A stretch of 64,000 nt of DNA from Ruditapes philippinarum (taxonomy: Eukaryota), in assembly GCF_026571515.1 (NCBI RefSeq), contig NW_026865484.1, positions 1,116,001 through 1,180,000 of the forward strand. Reading direction: 5' to 3'. This document shows, in pieces, positions 7,401 to 53,728 of the stretch (the first letter of the stretch is position 1; every line of letters begins with the position of its first letter). The position numbers were made by a program, and so were the translations under genes. A model generated the notes under the pieces. That model was not told the DNA's origin, made no database searches, and was given only the letters and a program-made list of their open reading frames with translations.

Positions 7401-10400
7401 TAACTTAAATATTTCGAATGGAAATTGAAATACTAGAGTTGAGAACAAAAATGTTAAAGACAATAGTTATTGTCTACACCATTGACATAATACGCATTAG
7501 AAAATATTTTAAGGAAGCTAAATGATTGTGCGATACTACATTTTAGCTGTGAATACGATAAAAACATTTAAGCTGTTGTGTTTTTATTAAAGTCATACAG
7601 ATCATTTTAAAGCATAATTATTTTCCCTTGATTATATCTCACGTTAAGTTATGGTGAAACAAAAGAAAAATAACAAAGAAAAAACTAAACTTGTTACAAA
7701 AGGAAATAAAACCCATCTTTTTTACAAGAGAGATACCTGGCTATGTTTTGTTTTTCTAAAAGCAAATAACTTTTGAACTATTTAAAACAGTGTACACGTT
7801 AGACTTTGTGCTATTTCTCTTACATTCCAGGGAAGGGCCCACGATAATGTTGTAAAAACTTTTGGCCCAACCCTTTTGTATATTGTGTAATTTTGTTGAT
7901 GTAAATGAATTGTTGTATATTTATATATGCAATAAAATATTATTAAACTTCTCTTACATTCAATATTATGTACTTGATGTTATTTTCATAACTATAGATA
8001 AAGACAACAGTCGTACAATTAGCTTAAATATCCTCTAAATACTAAGTTAAAGCACATAGCTATATTTGATATATAAGTTTCTAGCGATCCTTCAGCCAAA
8101 AACCGGCACTCAGCGTACACTCATAATAAGCCAAGGTACGTCCCTGACTTGTCAATGTCAGAGCTGCATTACTGGTAATGGTACTCAATGTACAAGACTT
8201 GTCAATGTACATGTATATACAGGTGTTATACAGAAGTTGATAATATAAATGTAAGTCATATTAAAATTGTCCAGGTTTTACTGCAGTGATTTTGCAAGTA
8301 CTGGTACTGATACTGAATTACTCTTACAAAATTTTGCTACTACTGGTACTGGTACTGCATTACTGTCTTAAAAAGTGCTACTGCTACTGCATTACTAGGC
8401 AGTACTTTTGGTTTTGATAAAAATAGCATAAATTTTTCTCATGAAATAAAGCTGTAATTTACATTATTTCATTTTTGTGGAAAAAAAAGTTATCAAATCT
8501 ATAGATAATTTGCTGCAATATTCCTTCAAATGTAAACATAGTATTTATCATAAAAAGCACCAAAGACTTTAGTAAAAATTAAATTGAGATACACAGACTC
8601 AATAACTCTTTACCCTAAAATATCCTTATTAAAATCTTTTATTACTTTGTATTTACTAGTAAAAGAGCAAAATAATCACTAATTAATTGCTTCTATTTTA
8701 AAATTTTCTATTTCAAGTGATATTGTTAGCACCATAAAAAATTGTTATTTACTTTGGTTTAAATTGAACAGAGGTGTGAAGGGGTGAAAGGCAACAAAAG
8801 ACTGTTGTGTTTTAAATGAAAGATGATTGCATTGTATTACAGTTGACTTGTTACTAAACAATAAGATATGACATGAATATATGTTGTAAATATTGTTTGT
8901 AAAAAGTATGTTAAAACTATAAAGTTGTAAAAATGTTATGTTAACTTGAAATTAAATTATGATTTTATTTATTTGCTGAATAATATTTGCAATTATTTGT
9001 TTCACACTGTGTATTTATTCAAACTTTGATGAATATATAAAAGTAATGGTACTGATACTTAATTACTTCAGCAAAAAAAGTACTGGTACTGTAGAACCGA
9101 GCTAAAATCTAGTACTGGTACTGGTAATGGTACTGCATAATTTGCCAAGTACTGGTACTGGTACTTAAGTATTACACTCTTAGTACTGATGCAGCTCTGG
9201 TCAATGTACAAGACTTGTCAATGTACATGTATATACAGGTGTTATACAGAAGTTGATAATATAAATGTAAGTCATATTAAAATTGTCCAGGTTATGATGT
9301 AGTTGGAGTATGTAATTATGCATTTAATACATTTACCTCAACTTTATTAAAAGTAGTTAATATAATGAAAACAAAAAAACTTTAAATTTTTGCTTTTATT
9401 TGGTTTTAAGGAGCATTTCTACATCTTTTGGATCAGAAACAGCTTGTGACAATCTTCTGTGAACGTCCTCAGCTTGTTGCACAACATCCTGATCTGTTGC
9501 TAGGCAACCTGGATACCCTTGACCTTTGTGAACTGTTACAGTTAGTTGAGGTGCTTGACCCTTCTAAGCCTATTATTAGGGGTTTTGTGCAGAGGAAACT
9601 GAACTCAAGGAGAAGAACTAGCTCATTGACATCATTAACAGGGTCAGGAGAATTTGGAGATAGTGTAACAAGTGTAAGAATGGTAAGTAATGTTACATGT
9701 TTAGTATAAGAAATTTGATTTTAAAAAATGAAGCCTGCCAGATGGCAGTGGGGAAAGTTTGATAGAGTTTATTAAAGCACAGCAAACTTAAATAAGATTT
9801 TGAGATCTGTTAAGGATTTTCTTACTCACATTAGCATATATCAAGTGCTTTGTGGCAGCTATGAAAAGTTGTCCTGTACTTGATCTTAGTATTGTTGCAT
9901 TTTTCTGGTCTTACAGGATCTTTGATCCAATAACTTTTATAGTGTTAAATAAATCAATGAGAGATATAGCAATTTTAACTTTGTCTCATGGACAGACTCA
10001 ATCAAACGTTTATCTCATAATTTTTCTCTCATAATCCCTCATTATTCTCAAGAGATTAACCTTTTTCAGACTTCTAATTGTTTATGGTTAATGTACTACC
10101 TAAACTTCAGGATGTGAAGAGTTTAGATGCTATGAGAATGGTCCACTGTTTCATCATGGTAGTACTTCATTTGAACAAGAGGAGACTTCTAGATGGTAAA
10201 CCAGTCAACACTGACTTCCTGTTTGAGGACATGGAAGATACTCTAAAAAATATTGTAAGTATTCTGTTTTAAAATAGCATTTTTAAATGAGCAGTTTTAT
10301 CTAATTAAGCAATTGGAAAGTGTTTAAACAGCTAATTATTTGATAATTTCTAGAACATATTTAATATGCGTATTTATATGCGTATTTAAATGTTTATAAA

Positions 10401-13400
10401 ACTTATGCGTCTGCTCAAAATTAAAAACATAAAATGTGGTCACTAAACTTACCGTTTCTGTTAAAAGGTACTGCTAGGAAGGTATTTAATAGGCTTCCAT
10501 TAAAAAATAAAACAAATTATAATAAGCTAAAAAATGCTTTGTTAAGGCAGTTTAAGTTAACTAATAATGGGTATAAAAAAAAAGTTTAAAACCAAAAAAC
10601 CCCGTAAAAATAAAACTTTTGTTATGTTCCTAGCTAAAATTTCTAAATACTTAAATGGTTGGCTAAAATTAAGTAAGGTAAAAAAAACTTATAAAAAGTT
10701 GTTAAACTTCATAGTAAAAAATCAATTTTTAAATATCTGCAATAAAAAACTATATCAAAACCTTAGTAGTAAAAAGTTGTTTTCAGCCGTAAAGTAGCAA
10801 AAAATGCAAATTTGTTTGCCAAAACTAAAAAAGGTCCAAAGTATGTAGTAAATCATAAAATTAAAAAAAAAGCTAAGCCTTATGCACTGCCAAGTAAACC
10901 TGTAAATAAAAATCAAGGTAGTAGTTATCGTATGCAAAAAGGTAACAATAAACTGGTAAATAAAGGTAAAGCATCTCAGCAGTATAAAGGTTATAAATGC
11001 ACATATTGTGGTCGTTTAGGGCATACAGCATTTTTCTGTAAAAATAAGGCTACAAATAAAGCTAACGCAGCAAAAAACATAAAACCAAACTCAATAAATC
11101 CAAGTAAAAATAATAATAGTTATCAGGGTAATAAAAGGCAAAAAGGTTATAAAGGTAAAAGTAAAGGTAAAAAAAAAAATAAAAATGCAAATTCAAAAAT
11201 TCATGTACACCCAGTATTTTTTATTGCAACTATAGCTTTACCATTACATATACCTTTAGTTGTTGGACATGAATTTAGAGTAACTGTACCCACGTTTTTA
11301 AAATTTTTAAGTTTTATTAAACTACTACCACTATTTGATCATGTTATACTGCAGTAGCCATAGCTTCGGTAAGTTAAATTGGTATACAATTCGAGACATT
11401 TGAACTTTGATTTCTGTATTGGCGTCAATTTAATGACAAGATTTTGAGCCATTGAATAGAAATTTAGTAATTTACAAAAGAAAACAGAATGAAAAGGATA
11501 GGGCGATAACTTAATTAACAAGCTTACAGTAGATACATGTATATCCTGTGTCATTATCATACATTGATATAATAATAATATAATTCTTTAATAAAAATAT
11601 AACAGGGTAAAAAATTGGTTTTTCATTTTCTTTACGATATGGAGAAAATCGACTTATCAAAGTTCGACATATATGGTAGAGATTTAATTTAGTTTAGCTA
11701 TGGTTTAAATGTTGGCATGTCTGTCATATTAAACGTCTAATTCCTTTCTGTTTATGATTTCTATAGCTACAAAGTTCCCAGTCAAACAGAAGGAAAATAA
11801 ATCCTCGGCCTAATCCTGTAGGCTGTGGACAGACCCATGCTGCAGTGGCACTAAAGAACGGTGATCTCTATACTTGGGGGAAGTCCAACAATGGCAGGTC
11901 AGTTTACATTAACAAATTGTTACATGTCTAATCATTTGTATTACTATATTTAATTTTATGGAATGTATAGCTGTCCTTCATACCCCTGAAATTTACAGTC
12001 CATTGGTTGGATAGGTAATCTAATGTGTGCTCTGTTTTTCTATGACAAATATTGAAATAAAATCAATGAGTGTTGTAATTTTGTTGACATAGACAAAGAA
12101 ATAGAGAAATCTTGTTGACAATAATTTTTTTTATTTAAAACCAAAACATTTAAAGTGAATTAAAACGAAAAAATTAAAACATTGGGAATAATACCGGATT
12201 TACAGTAATAAAACACTTGCTGGAAGGTTTTTGCTTTCAAGGTCTTATATGTTTACGAAACACATTTTCTTGTTTATATTTTATTCATTGTTAATACATC
12301 AATACTGTAAACAAACAGTTGTTATTTGTATGTAGATTGGGACATGGGGAACAGAAAGGTAGCCCTGTATCATGTGGACCATGTAGAATAGGAAACTTTC
12401 AAACACTACAGATTAAAGTGACCTCTGTAGCATGTGGCATGCAGCATACAATAGCACTTACCAATCAAGGGGTAGGTATAAATGAAACATATAAATTCTG
12501 CATTCTGCTTTGTTTTCTTTTGAAATTATCTACTTAAAACACATTATGCTCTTCCTTTCATAGCATAGCATGAAAAATATTACAAATAAAAGAAAACAGT
12601 TGATTTTATCTTCACAGGCACTATTTCATGGATTATATTACCTTAGCAGTTGTAAGGAGCATTTCAAAATTGATTACGATTTGTGTGTACTGATGTTCAT
12701 AAGAAGAAACATTTCATTAAATTAGTTAAATGTTTTGTCATATAACTTGCAGCTCTATGGATGGGGTTCATCTAAGTATGGTCAGGTTGGTCTAGGAACA
12801 AAGCACATGTACACTCGTCCTATGCCTTTAGAGGAGATGTCAAAGGTCACATGTGTCGCCGTTGACTGCGGACAATACCACTCTGTAGCTCTAACAGAAG
12901 ATGCTCAGTATGTATAGAATAAGTTACTCATTAGCTTGTGAAATACTCAATCGGGTAACAAAGTAGTTTCCACTGTCCATTGTTATTAATTTCTGACCCT
13001 TGATCATATTCCTAAAGGAAAAGACTAGTAGTATTCTTTTTCTCCAGTTGACGGACAAAAAAATCTCAGTTGTAAGATTTTTTTTGTTTTAAAAATATGT
13101 GATCTGATTTTCATATATAGATAAAGAAAATGTTTTTTATACTTGAAAACAAAACATTCAACAACCGCAAAAGTAGTGTTGTCCTGATTGTCTCTGAAAA
13201 TCGATAACTAATCGGACCACCCCAAAATTGGTGACAAGCGATAGTCCTTTTTAAAAATCGATTATTTAACTTTTAATGTTCTACCACCGCTGAATTGCCT
13301 ATACTTTATTGTTAATACTACTTTAGAAAATTATAGTGTGTAATAACATAATATTATAAACTTACATATCTAATGTATTTAAATAAGTGATCTGCAATAT

Positions 13401-50400: not shown

Positions 50401-51975
50401 TACATCATGCACGAGTGGAAACCCTGATAAGTACAAAGATGGAGGTAAGTAATACAACGCTTGAGTTTAGTGTTACATTAAGATCTCATCTTCCCAGAAA
50501 TTTTGTTCACAAAACAACACGTGTTAAGTGCTGGTGGCAGCTGTAGAAAGTAACCTCGTTCTTCATCTTCGTGTTGTTATATTTTTCTGGTCCTTTGGGA
50601 TCACTGATTTTAATACTTTAGTATTAATGATTGAAAACGGCGGTGAAAATGGGTATGAGATGTTGCACTTTGAATTGTCGCTTATAAACATACTCAATAA
50701 AACCGAATCTGCAGTTTTATACCTTCTGTTTTTTTTAAATTGCTCTTAAAAATTTAAATGATCTTCCCATTTCCAGATTGTTCCTATCATATATTAGTAT
50801 GACAATTGTTACTCTGCAATGTATCCTATTGACAAGACTGTTGCATAGATATTGACGTCAAATATGTGTTTACAATAATCTTATAATATAAGTATATTTA
50901 TAAACAGAAGCATATCCTCTCTCCAATACTTTCAATACTTTACAGTTTATACATACATGTATACCAAACATTAAACAGAAAAATAAAATTCAAAAGGTGG
51001 TTTTATTTGGAGCCATCACGCCGTAACATATACATGTGAGATGTTTTCCGGAACGCTGCAGATGCGGTCCCTCCCCCCATACAAACATTTCCAACCAGTT
51101 TATCCCCGGTACAAACAATTACTGTTACTGTTAAATTAAGTATGAGATTGGATTATTCAAAACACTCCTTATTCCGGAGAAACTCTTTTTATTGGGAAAG
51201 TAACAATGAGGTCTATGCAAACATATCAGGATGAAATTTCTGAAATGTATATGTTTCTCTTTCTTTTGATTGACAATACATAAAAAACTTTCACTTACTA
51301 CTAAGATTTAGATGAAGAAGTATCTGTAAGTATTCTGTACAACATGTATATACACGTATATAAATTTTTGACATATGTGTATATATTTCAGGGACGATAT
51401 AAACAATATACTTTAAAAACAAAAATATAAAGATATAAAATGACAACACAAAATTCATTTTATTTTCTCACAAATCTGGACTGCCTGTTGAAACAAAATT
51501 AAGTCATTTACATGACGGAAAATGAATTAGATACACATATACCACATTTCATATTTCTTATTCTTGTAGTGTTGACACATATTCGCGGAGAAGCCACCGA
51601 TATAGAAACAACAGCAGACGTATCTTTGCACTGAAAATAATAACTGAAAATAAGACCGTTTTATGTTTTGTAGCGTTGAAAGCCATCCGTGGAGAAGGCG
51701 GTGACAATTCGACAGTAGGCGACACAACACAAGACAGTTCTTTACTACCAGACGGCCTTGATTTGCTCATGGATGATAAAGGTGGTGGCGGCGGTGGAGA
51801 TAAAAGTAAAAGTAAGAAAAATAAAGCAAAATCCAAGAAAAAACCGCCCAAGAAATCTAGAACTAAATCTAAAAGAAAGTCAAAAAAGAAAGGATTTAAG
51901 AAGAAAGGTGGTGGCAAAAAGAAAGGCGGTGGTGGAAAAAAGAAAGGTGGTGGCGGAGGTGGAAAGAAACGTTAA
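47463..51975 (+). CDS. Peripherin-2/ROM1-like tetraspanin (isoform with K/G-rich terminal exon)
   Basis: Exons 47463-48025, 49703-49931, 50294-50444, 51674-51975. Four hydrophobic segments; IDKMQMVMRCCGSRSYKDWFEVGWI, DDVPFSCC...ARPC, LY.NGC and LRYLQTS match the PRPH2/ROM1 D2 loop and post-TM4 motifs. Confidence 0.9.
48138..49362 (-). mobile_element. HINE-like element with a ~160-bp tandem array, in the tetraspanin intron
   Basis: Repeated TTTGACCTCTAAGTGTGACCTTGACCTTGGAG.TAGGG units, a (GGAC/AGAC)n tract, and subTIR GTCCCCCGC (48167) / GCGGGGGAC (49349). Confidence 0.85.
51570..51634 (+). CDS. Putative short alternative terminal exon of the tetraspanin (VLTHIRGEATDIETTADVSLH*)
   Basis: Pyrimidine-rich acceptor TTTCTTATTCTTGTAG, phase 1 as required by exon 3. 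It shares the xLxxIRGE start with the 51674 exon. Confidence 0.55.
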
Positions 51976-52313
51976 ATGAATGCAAGATAATCGACATTAA
52001 AGACTAAGAATTAATGTATTCACTTCAAAGAATCATAATACATATACATTGTAGTTCATTTTTTTGTCTAAACATGTGAATGGAATATGTAGTCTATTAA
52101 TTAAACTGAGTACAAAACTGACCATTGCTCTTTTTGTTTATTTTGATATAGCCGCTTTTTTGCATAGATCATCAATAAAATGTCTATAAATTTATATGAA
52201 TAGACAAGAAATATAAATGTAATACATTTAATTCATTAATATATCCGCTGTTGCCTGTTCTACACGATATATTATTCAAAATCTTGCAAGATAACCTTTT
52301 TCGTGTTTTGTAG

Positions 52314-53728
52314 AGCTAGAAATAACGTCTAATGTCGGTCATGACTTTGAGGAATCAATGATGTCAGAGATACAGCGAAGTGAGGATTTAAATGCAGATG
52401 ATATCACGTTAGAAAACGCAAGCTTTAGCAGCTTAACGGATTTAGAGTCAGGGACAAACCTTTTAAATGATAGTATCAACAAAATGCCCAATTTCAATCC
52501 TGACAATTCTTTACAGCACAGTTACATACATGAAGACAATTTACATGATTTAAATGCTCTCAGAACAACACGTGATAGTATACACAGACAGAATAGGAAT
52601 AACAAAGATGATAAGGGTTCTAATATGAAAATAACAACGGACATAGGTGGATTTGTATCCGAACAATACGATAAAAGGGATAGGTTGGATAAACATCACA
52701 GTTTAAATAGCTCAAAAATGTCCCATCAAACAGAAAAATCACCAAAAAAATCACTGTTTCAGTCGGCCAGAGAATCACAATCCCCCAAAAAGTCAAAAAC
52801 CCCTAAAACAGCAAATTCATCTTCTTCATCACCAAAAGAACCACGATCCCCCAAGAAGTCAAAAACCTCTAAAACGGAAAAATCATCTAAAAAGTCTAGG
52901 TCACCATCACCAAAAGAACCACGATTCCCGAAGAAGTCAAAAACCTCCAAAACGGCGAAATCATCTAAAAAGTCTAGGTCACAATCGCCAAAAGAATCAC
53001 GATCCCACGAGAAGTCAAAGACCTCCAAAACGGCGAAATCATCTAAAATGTCTAGGTCACCCTCACCAAAAGAACCACGATCCCCCAAGAAGTCAAAGAC
53101 CTCTAAAACGGCGAAATCATCTAAAAGGTCTAGGTCACAATCGCCAGAAGAATCACGATCCCCCGAGAAGTCAAAGACCTCTAAAACGGCGAAATCATCT
53201 AAAAAGTCTAGGTCACAATCGCCAAAAGAATCACGATCTCCCAAGAAGTCAAAGACCTCTAAAACGACGAAATCATCTAAAATGTCTAGGTCACCCTCAC
53301 CAAAAGAATCACGATCCCCGAAGAAGTCAAAAACCTCCAAAACGGCGAAATCATCTAAAAAGTCTAGGTCACAATCGCCAAAAGAATCACGATCCCCCAA
53401 GAAGTCAAAGACCTCTAAAACGGCGAAATCATCTAAAAAGTCTAGGTCACAATCACCAAAAGAACCACGATTCCCGAAGAAGTCAAAAACTTCCAAAACG
53501 GCGAAATCATCTAAAAAGTCTATGTCTCCATCGCCAAAAGAATCACAATCCCACAAGAATTCAAAAAAGCTCGAAACAGCGAATTCATCTAAAAGGTTTA
53601 GGTCACCATCGCCCAAAAAATCACGATCCCCCAAAAAGTCAAAAACCAAAAGGTCAAAACCTGTCAAGAAGTCACGATCGCCAGCAAAATCAAAACCACC
53701 TAAAAAAGGAAAGACACCTAAAAGGTAG
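52314..53728 (+). CDS. Ser/Lys-rich SPKK-repeat coding exon (protamine-like/H1-tail-like), probably an alternative last exon of the tetraspanin
   Basis: Acceptor CCTTTTTCGTGTTTTGTAG at 52313, phase 1 and in frame with ORF 52358-53728. About 11 copies of a 78-bp/26-aa unit SPKESRSPKKSKTSKTAKSSKKSRSQ. Confidence 0.75.

Follow-up and report, generated by a model that had tools for sequence, protein, structure and literature searches.

One-strand G-to-A hypermutation of a captured Gypsy gag fragment in a bivalve genome suggests APOBEC-like editing of retrotransposon cDNA

Introduction

Vertebrate LTR elements and endogenous retroviruses edited by APOBEC enzymes are recognised by clusters of coding-strand G-to-A changes relative to an unedited source and by inheritance through the germline (PMC4866542), two features shared by the locus described here. 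Knisbacher and Levanon, who list GA among their editing motifs, define as ultra-edited an element with at least 25 G-to-A changes that form the majority of its mismatches; as a negative control they used 19 invertebrate genomes, bivalves not necessarily among them, which yielded 21 elements, at noise level (PMC4866542). In the available text of this broad screen, invertebrates were treated as free of retroelement DNA editing. Invertebrate enzymes of the AID/APOBEC family deaminate DNA in E. coli (Liu et al., PMC5956068), and the family is expanded in molluscs, with 22 members in the Pacific oyster (Krishnan et al., PMC5889660; Liu et al., PMC5956068). The natural substrates of these enzymes are an open question, their targets being merely speculated on in the available text of both reports (PMC5889660, PMC5956068), and that of the latter gives no sequence preference for them. 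In the literature covered, which leaves out most subscription journals, no APOBEC-type editing of a retroelement in an invertebrate was found. An APOBEC-like signature in transmissible cancer of clams was considered as a precedent and dropped, the term 'apobec' being absent from the accessible text of those papers.

Fungal RIP and CpG decay also leave many C-to-T and G-to-A transitions in repeat DNA; their targets are repeats already in the genome, as a rule at CpA or CpG and with both strands affected. In yeast, single-stranded minus-strand intermediates of Ty1 are inserted at chromosome breaks (PMC10802722). The present analysis concerns a 64-kb window, that is, the whole stretch of Ruditapes philippinarum DNA analysed, in which a sequence-only reading had proposed an APOBEC-like edited Gypsy gag.

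Results

On the + strand between 10355 and 11265 the dinucleotide GA occurs exactly once, at 10478, as the sequence-only reading had counted; the observed/expected ratio is 0.02 (binomial P for the depletion about 7e-21), with GG, GC and GT in the same tract at 1.6–2.2 and TC at 0.76. The longest GA-free gap of the window measures 788 nt, compared with a maximum of 214 across 200 simulated windows. The strong loss of GA is therefore real, but the limits first given for it had to be redrawn, since the element-derived piece, part of the gag of a young Gypsy family of Gmr1-like type, spans 10378–11340 (963 nt). The loss of GA from the + strand holds as far as 11201 and not in the inverted piece at 11202–11340, where the + strand loses TC instead. 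The proposed Gypsy gag origin stands, but the sequence is a fragment within an intron and not a whole element.

Against the closest natural copy (L002), 115 of the 117 substitutions in the fragment are coding-strand G-to-A changes and none is a coding-strand C-to-T change; each of 26 copies differs from it by 108–117 G-to-A and 2–15 other changes, with about one indel per alignment. Relative to L002, G was changed at 95 of 96 GA sites, compared with one of 105 GC and GT sites (Fisher P 7e-56), the single GC-context change, at 10599, being the exception to the context rule. GG sites were changed in 19 of 20 cases where the next G was also changed and in none of 34 where it was not (P 1e-13), and consecutive changed G residues form runs of up to four. 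The context counts were near-identical in the five copies examined out of 19. As a control, the natural copies were compared among themselves and differed by 1.07% on average (171 pairs), in all six substitution classes, and they retain 96–100 GA over the region compared. Strand-specific change at GA, retention of GA by intact family members and asymmetry of the mismatches, all put forward in the sequence-only reading as checks, were borne out, the polarity following the inversion described below. The lone GA of the sense piece (10478–10479, + strand) is a secondary site remaining in a run of G of which the last G alone was altered, much as had been guessed.

The reading frame, open in L002, has lost all 19 Asp and all 18 Glu residues of that copy, in agreement with the earlier remark that acidic residues were missing and that Asn and Lys stood in their place; the residue changes are R>K 24, D>N 19, E>K 18, G>K 4, W>stop 1, M>I 1 and R>Q 1. 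A stop codon at 10422–10424 (+ strand) stands where the natural copy has Trp. The origin of this TAA from a Trp codon had been correctly recognised, but the base that follows is itself changed relative to the natural copy and is not an original A; Trp codons with T or C as the next base are preserved, as claimed.

The fragment lies in an intron (10255–11766, + strand, GT/AG boundaries placed by eye) of a host RCC1-repeat gene, with open exon frames on both sides and RCC1 Pfam matches in the three downstream exons tested. Its sense piece (10378–11201, + strand) reaches from the putatively SCAN-like capsid region to past the zinc knuckle (CX2CX4HX4C, 10998–11039, + strand, also encoded by the natural copy L031), and 101 of its 102 changes against L002 are G-to-A (94–103 G-to-A per copy in 19 copies). 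The terminal 139 nt (11202–11340, − strand) is the following piece of the element, 10 nt further on in L002 coordinates, in inverted orientation, and the polarity of the edits reverses along with it, the + strand of the window showing 14 C-to-T changes against each of 19 copies. The host flanks of 300 nt retain 21 and 17 GA, so the host DNA beside the break is unaltered. Inversion, reversed polarity and unaltered flanks together indicate that the template was edited prior to its capture.

At the left junction, 13 bases (10365–10377, + strand) have no counterpart in the empty allele, which joins 10364 to 11338; they contain a 12-nt tandem duplication of the fragment start in its edited state (period-12 repeat, 10358–10389), which is read as a scar of re-priming. 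At the right junction, where the empty allele resumes, target site and element have a 3-nt microhomology in common (11338–11340). The sole unchanged GA site, at 11340, falls within it, and this base is therefore probably host-derived. The insertion contains no LTR and created no target duplication, and four target bases were replaced; a poly(A) tail, which together with a target-site duplication is a hallmark of LINE twin priming, is likewise absent from its junctions. The window insertion is an end-joined fragment and not a provirus, and it came in through break repair, not by integrase. A search for the second haplotype with the left flank as query returned an unrelated repeat only.

The edited allele was recovered as independent contigs from four of four sequencing runs belonging to four studies, one of these runs possibly being the source of the assembly, and the check in raw reads that had been asked for thus favoured the edited bases. 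The empty site was also present in two of the four runs, with no target duplication. The edited allele is heritable and not an artefact. The allele of runs X8 and X12 differs in showing G at five of the edited positions, which do not form one contiguous tract; simple gene conversion was rejected as the origin of the X8 variants, only four of the eight edited sites of the interval being G. Across the inner inversion junction runs a single contig of run X1 with 30 letters on its short side, one below the threshold, and this junction was not counted as bridged. Small indel errors of the assembly were found at 10575 and 10786, where all four runs differ from it.

The fragment derives from a Gypsy gag. 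Its parent family is young and abundant and has LTRs, a single ORF, a gag domain that may be SCAN-like (E 5e-6, but 26.6 bits at a cut-off of 27) and an integrase upstream of the reverse transcriptase (RT). Terminal direct repeats ending in CA were seen in five of six stretches compared with themselves, 33–148 nt of the 5' repeat being 99–100% identical to the 3' end. The order of domains (INT aa 665–837, RT 1167–1324, RH 1391–1500) places integrase ahead of RT-RNase H, which is a Gmr1 trait. A SCAN domain is described for Gmr elements (PMC4131045). The parent family is an ordinary Gmr1-like Ty3/Gypsy family.

Editing is rare in this genome, in which two edited elements were found. None of 39 other copies across the same gag region was edited, and pairwise comparison of 20 long copies revealed no edited tract. 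A Gypsy RT motif in its edited state gave 33 matches (control 21), none of them RT-like within the 80 nt inspected, compared with 336 matches of the intact motif, 100 of which were among the matches listed; among about 334 Gypsy RT cores there were no edited copies. For the parent family, an LTR motif and an integrase motif, each in edited state, had no matches, and an edited LINE RT motif had one, with GA kept, compared with at least 2258 for the intact motif. None of the probes (gag, RT, LTR, integrase, pairwise copies) recovered an edited copy of full length or with LTRs, the motif probes being such that copies with an edited Gly codon or altered spacing are missed. In metagenomes, at least 120 RT loci carry the edited motif; among the matches listed the lowest GA observed/expected ratio was 0.60, versus 0.02 in the gag tract, and the loci lowest in GA were depleted on both strands.

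A generic integrase motif in edited state gave four matches (control two), namely one edited element (L171), one integrase-like sequence with GA kept and two that were chance-like. L171 has no GA in 878 nt, where about 40 are expected, with TC at normal frequency. In a protein-level comparison with its closest relative (P0009) none of 29 Asp and Glu residues was kept, compared with 54 of 70 in a control pair. Its family differs from that of the gag fragment in having the order RT-RH-INT and no DNA match to L031, and it too is cut, at its 3' side. L171, seen in the assembly, was picked by two coding-strand changes and compared with a relative at the protein level; on this footing it appears to be a second, independent edited retrotransposon fragment, from an unrelated Gypsy family of the same genome, such as the suggested scan for GA-depleted LTR elements was meant to find. 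None of 359 relatives of the edited integrase in protein databases was free of Asp and Glu overall. P0183 and P0204 were considered as edited copies and rejected, having N at catalytic Asp positions yet 11–14 acidic residues kept and mixed changes.

The genome contains at least three open AID/APOBEC-like deaminase frames, all partial (L047, L048 and L169), and one further frame with two stops, as had been anticipated for genes with HxE and PCxxC motifs. All three open frames contain HAE and SPCxxC zinc motifs and match the APOBEC_N profile above its cut-off (1e-12, 2e-9 and 1e-6); it was this profile that found the genes, a search of the genome with the Inv-AAD profile (PF18785) giving nothing above cut-off. 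Their best PDB matches, AID and APOBEC3C/3F, are weak (E 0.003–0.01), and their nearest protein clusters are mostly from Mollusca, which may be considered a lead. The earlier guess at the host is supported, by indirect evidence, as far as its being a mollusc. The HxE and PCxxC motifs and the several paralogs, a broken one included, liken them to the classical AID/APOBEC enzymes of invertebrates, for which the edited locus suggests both a possible substrate in vivo and a sequence context.

Discussion

The gag fragment fits the published definition of an ultra-edited element, with 115 edits in 962 nt (12.0 per 100) compared with 392 in 4304 (9.1 per 100) for the most edited element of that survey, and it differs from the cases described there in its invertebrate host, its all-or-none context and its nature as an end-joined fragment rather than a provirus (PMC4866542). 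The vertebrate-like signature proposed from the letters alone holds, but the locus departs from the vertebrate picture in that no probe recovered an edited copy of full length or with LTRs. The label 'A3F/A3B-like' is right as to GA on the coding strand and TC on the other, but the context is stricter than the label implies; saturation this complete, with no leakage, goes beyond what is known to us of vertebrate APOBEC3.

The best explanation, and in our judgement a probable one, is that a cytidine deaminase with a strict requirement for 5'-TC on single strands acted on minus-strand cDNA. During reverse transcription of the Gypsy element, the single-stranded minus-strand cDNA would have been deaminated to saturation by an enzyme that acts on a C directly after T or U and not on one after C, A or G. 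Runs of the TCC type would be converted stepwise because each fresh U would license the following C. The likeliest candidate for this enzyme is one of the AID/APOBEC-like deaminases of the host. The uracil-rich cDNA would have failed to complete normal integration, and a piece of it may have been used, in a germline cell, as the single-stranded template for mending a chromosomal break. The two ends of the break would have been primed on the same minus strand by microhomology of a few bases, have read U as A and have then been joined, and such two-end priming would produce the sense and inverted pieces together with the small duplication at the junction. Ty1 cDNA capture at double-strand breaks shares with this locus an internal fragment with no LTR and no target duplication and with microhomology at its junction, but here the template was hypermutated first and presumably copied from both break ends, hence the inversion (PMC10802722).

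An RT error at a very low dCTP/dTTP ratio, in which the enzyme slips after template A and places T opposite G (dislocation), would predict the same strand, the same GA context and stepwise G-runs while requiring no host enzyme, and retroviral RTs have dislocation hot spots and make G-to-A errors at low dCTP/dTTP (PMC3185545). We consider it improbable, since the hot-spot error rates given there, 1e-2 to 1e-3, compare with 95 of 96 here, and since the RT would have had to place the correct C at 138 of 139 other G (those in GC and GT, and those in GG whose second G is unaltered) and to extend past as many as four mismatches in a row, with about one indel in each alignment; the same endpoint in two unrelated RT families argues against it too. 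Equally improbable is incidental action of the same kind of deaminase on long-lived single-stranded DNA, be it free or repair-template fragments, with no measurable restriction of transposition. It would suit a repair-captured fragment in the window, an L171 cut at its 3' side, the young and abundant state of the parent family and the absence of an edited full-length copy from the motif probes. However, the host DNA adjoining the break is unaltered, G-to-A on the left with C-to-T on the right is the opposite of what resected break ends should give, judging from kataegis geometry, and lethal saturation would by itself account for the survival of fragments only.

C-to-U editing of an antisense element transcript, followed by its copying into the genome by LINE machinery, would match the two-piece inversion by twin priming if the template were the minus strand, and LINE RT motifs are plentiful in this genome. 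The junctions with their four replaced target bases and without poly(A) or target-site duplication speak against it, antisense transcripts would be needed for both elements, and we know of no saturating UC editing across about 1 kb of RNA; this route is very unlikely. Filter feeders harbour many microbes, and one bacterial interbacterial deaminase has a strict TC preference and acts on double-stranded DNA, so that a toxin-type enzyme encoded by a bacterium, symbiont or virus comes to mind; such an enzyme, however, would leave its traces on either strand and in the flanking DNA, and the host has candidate deaminases of its own, which leaves this source a still slighter chance. The probability of an assembly or base-calling artefact, of CpG decay or of RIP-like or UV-type mutation is negligible. 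Assembly indel errors do occur at the locus, but the edited bases stand in independent contigs of four studies, which refutes an artefact there. Unlike RIP or CpG decay, the changes are on one strand, at TC only and not directed to CpG, arose before insertion and affect one copy among many; CC pairs without a preceding T were changed in none of 34 cases, and the metagenome RT loci that carry the edited motif keep far more of their GA (at least 0.60 of expectation among the matches listed).

Beyond the editing of cDNA by a strict deaminase, it may be proposed that bivalves run a germline defence against retrotransposons by means of their own AID/APOBEC-like deaminases, one of which would be an all-or-none 5'-TC/UC editor of single strands that alters nearly all sites on minus-strand cDNA; to this proposal we give even chances. 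If it is true, deaminase restriction of retroelements extends outside vertebrates. The edited cDNA would be destroyed and not integrated, so that the sole fossils would be rare kilobase fragments in chromosome breaks, and this would account for the negative result for invertebrates in surveys based on annotated LTR elements. The present case rests on two edited elements of unrelated Gypsy families and three open candidate enzymes in one mollusc genome, and it predicts that one of the three host proteins deaminates single-stranded DNA strictly at C preceded by T or U; a deaminase of such strict context could serve as an editing tool. GA-free fragments offer a target for genome-wide searches, and repeat annotation at the usual identity thresholds may misfile them. 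Elsewhere in the window, the other long dinucleotide gaps fall on tandem repeats, those of CC, CT and GT at 18.5–19.2 kb and those of TG and TT at 52.8–53.6 kb.

Loss of GA and substitution spectrum

Only one GA dinucleotide, at position 10478, was counted on the + strand between 10355 and 11265 (observed/expected 0.02), exactly as the sequence-only reading had claimed; over the same tract the ratios of GG, GC and GT were 1.6–2.2 and that of TC was 0.76. The longest GA-free gap at the locus spans 788 nt versus a maximum of 214 nt in 200 simulated windows, which rules out chance, and a simple repeat as the source of the loss was rejected after a repeat check. The gag frame was also correctly described as devoid of Asp and Glu, since 19 of 19 Asp and 18 of 18 Glu are gone in comparison with L002, the closest natural, i.e. 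unedited, copy of the parent Gypsy family.

Pairwise comparison of the window with natural copies, from which all spectrum counts were taken, divided the element into a sense piece (10378–11201, + strand) and an inverted piece (11202–11340, − strand) that begins 10 nt further along the element. Against L002, the former carries 101 G>A and one other substitution, and the latter 14 C>T and one other. Over 26 copies, coding-strand G>A amounted to 108–117 versus 2–15 other changes. The mismatches thus proved to be of the expected type and context: with respect to the 3′ base, G was changed at 95 of 96 sites where A followed, at 19/54 where G followed, at 1/34 where C followed and at 0/71 where T followed (five of 19 copies examined, near-identical), and the base preceding the G on the coding strand had little influence. 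GG sites were changed in 19/20 cases where the next G was changed and in 0/34 where it was not (P = 1e-13), which means that, viewed on the minus strand, C was converted when preceded by T or by a U that had itself been newly made, but not when preceded by C, A or G. The sole GA left unchanged, at 11340, ends the insert and lies within a 3-nt microhomology at the right end; because this microhomology is present in the empty allele too, that GA probably belongs to the host, and the count becomes 95/95. A single change in GC context (10599) is an exception to the rule, with an identical triplet there in 25 of the 26 copies.

The parent Gypsy family

The window's own genome contains at least 39 other copies of the gag region with 85–87% identity to the edited fragment (40 of 79 candidates scored). 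Comparison of 20 longer stretches gave an element length of about 7.6 kb, with a single open frame of 1537–1565 amino acids in three of them, and the terminal direct repeats end in CA. One natural copy has the domain order gag, integrase, RT and RNase H; integrase preceding RT is a Gmr1 trait, and the family, judged by its sequence, fits a Gmr1-like Ty3/Gypsy element. A SCAN-like gag domain in the natural copy scores just below the cut-off; SCAN is known from Gmr elements, according to the part of PMC4131045 used here. The 19 fetched copies differ from one another in the region of interest by 1.07% on average (171 pairs), with all six substitution classes represented, and intact members do not lack GA, each retaining 96–100. 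The parent family is young and unedited. In one further copy (L036), the element is followed directly by a second partial copy, apparently in tandem.

Inheritance and probable capture of the insertion

Neither LTR, target-site duplication nor poly(A) was found in the insert at 10378–11340 or at its junctions. Four target bases were replaced; the right junction has the 3-nt microhomology, and at the left one the first bases of the fragment, in edited state, are duplicated in tandem over 12 nt. We take these scars to be those of polymerase-theta-type end joining. Both pieces match break-end priming on one minus strand with copying toward its 5′ end, and the repair template would therefore have been single-stranded and antisense. 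Editing follows the element strand through the inversion and ends at the host flanks, of which 300 nt on either side hold 21 and 17 GA; it would thus have preceded capture. In yeast Ty1, replication intermediates of the LTR retrotransposon, including minus-strand single-stranded DNA, have been found inserted at breaks (PMC10802722, in part).

The locus was compared with assembled contigs, not raw reads, of four of the 24 listed sequencing runs, originating from four different studies; the assembly may derive from one of the four runs. An artefact is opposed by the presence of the edited bases in all four: each run has contigs that span the left junction and reach edited sequence, and contigs from the interior that show 1–4 differences. 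The right junction is also crossed in runs X1 and X3, and runs X8 and X12 additionally contain the empty allele (10364 joined to 11338, with four letters between). As the edited allele occurs in four runs, the empty one in two, and only 2 differences in 962 nt from the closest copy are not G>A, the insertion is germline, polymorphic and recent. The insertion is intronic, and the gene that carries it has RCC1 repeats.

The X8 insertion allele has G at four of eight edited positions in 10799–10831, and X12 at one more (region 10799–10857), in no contiguous tract; of the seven A>G variants in contigs carrying the insertion, five coincide with edited positions (P about 0.02). They may stem from patchy conversion, from mosaic repair or from effects of assembly. 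At small indels at 10575 and 10786 the assembly differs from all four runs, and these two frameshifts are probably assembly errors.

Frequency of editing and a second edited element

Since saturated editing is nearly deterministic, a further edited gag copy should match the query at about 99% identity. None of the 39 copies returned (40 of 79 candidates scored) did so, and the long copies, in which any 200 nt hold 4 events or fewer, showed no edited tract. For the Gypsy RT motif in its edited form there were 33 matches (control 21), none RT-like, and for the intact motif 336, placing the upper 95% bound of the edited fraction at about 0.9%, or a little above this because the motif misses some copies. 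One LTR and one integrase motif of the parent family in edited state had no match in the genome, the edited LINE RT motif yielded no GA-free match versus 2258 intact ones, and no comparable case occurred among the metagenome RT loci listed (at least 120) or 359 integrase relatives. Many of these metagenome Gypsy loci (L049–L168) are short of CA, TG, TC and GA on both strands, a RIP-like pattern, and others are depleted for CG only. Two degenerate database integrases from another source (P0183 and P0204) have Asn at the catalytic Asp positions and low Asp/Glu, but mixed changes.

Searching for a generic integrase motif in which Asn and Lys replace two catalytic acidic residues gave four genomic matches (control 2), one of them GA-free. 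This locus, L171 (1000 bases, G000:C1725:67120-68119), has no GA in positions 1–878, where about 40 are expected, and normal TC; GA returns at about 885, where protein homology stops. Compared at the protein level, as a single locus picked by two coding-strand sites, it is 77% identical to its closest relative (P0009) over the first stretch, with 0/29 Asp/Glu retained; its 73 mismatches include 40 of GA>AA type and one in the reverse direction; a control pair retained 54/70 Asp/Glu, with 8 GA>AA versus 12 reverse. The closest named relative is from R. philippinarum. With the order RT-RH-INT, 34–40% amino acid identity to the natural copy L031 and no DNA match, L171 is, by sequence, of a different family from the window element. 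Its edited part ends within the integrase C-terminal part (about 875–890), where 6 nt at the boundary are duplicated in tandem, possibly another break-repair junction. Edited copies are therefore infrequent, and of the two found, neither is a whole provirus.

Candidate deaminases and proposed mechanism

That the host has AID/APOBEC-like genes was borne out: an APOBEC_N search gave five matches above the cut-off among 11 candidates. Of the four examined, three (contigs C509, C2309 and C12228) are open frames with HAE and SPCxxC and one (C8225, 8855–9460) has two in-frame stops and 60% identity to the C509 frame; the fifth is a 502-aa frame at C3367. The frames match Pfam AID/APOBEC families at 1e-6 to 1e-15 and, weakly, AID and APOBEC3C/3F as best PDB entries; their nearest atlas clusters are mostly from Mollusca. 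On indirect evidence the host is a mollusc, probably a bivalve: mollusc-labelled RNA runs contain a small share of the region, and the closest named relative of L171 is from a clam. AID/APOBEC-like genes are known from invertebrates, some being active in bacteria (PMC5889660, PMC5956068), with no targets or sequence contexts given in the portions of these papers used; those of PMC13428168 and PMC6466128 add nothing to this.

We consider it probable that an ssDNA deaminase with strict TC/UC preference, for which an AID/APOBEC-like protein of the host is the likeliest candidate, would edit minus-strand cDNA to saturation, that this cDNA would fail to integrate, and that a piece of it would be captured at a chromosomal break. 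RT dislocation at low dCTP would affect the same strand in the same context. It is improbable, however, as the hot-spot rates described are 1e-2 to 1e-3 (PMC3185545, in part) and 138 of 139 insertions elsewhere would have to be correct; editing that was incidental, with no defensive effect, appears about equally so. Editing of antisense RNA followed by LINE-mediated insertion is a more distant prospect, a foreign deaminase slightly more so again, and an artefact or RIP, CpG or UV processes have a negligible chance.

Deaminase editing of cDNA would parallel what APOBEC enzymes do to LTR elements in vertebrates. The fragment falls within the published 'ultra-edited' definition, with 12.0 edits per 100 nt versus 9.1 in the most edited element of PMC4866542; the part of that study used here reports editing no higher than noise in its 19 invertebrate genomes, which served as negative control. 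Where the vertebrate cases are proviruses, the window copy is a repair-captured fragment, and its link to an enzyme is putative. Hence the GA loss is confirmed and extended, and the APOBEC-like interpretation of the sequence-only reading is supported in part: G>A strand and context, Gypsy origin and host deaminase genes agree with it, and the want of a provirus does not. The case is a variant of vertebrate-type editing rather than a proven member, with a candidate enzyme only. Whether bivalves have a germline deaminase defence whose only fossils are break-captured fragments is, in our estimation, evenly balanced.

Other features of the window

Long Ser/Lys/Arg-rich repetitive frames with a 78-nt period lie at 52295–53728 and 51526–51975 and resemble sperm nuclear basic proteins. 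CpG counts are clearly lower in 1–31000 than in 31000–64000, as expected under gene-body methylation.
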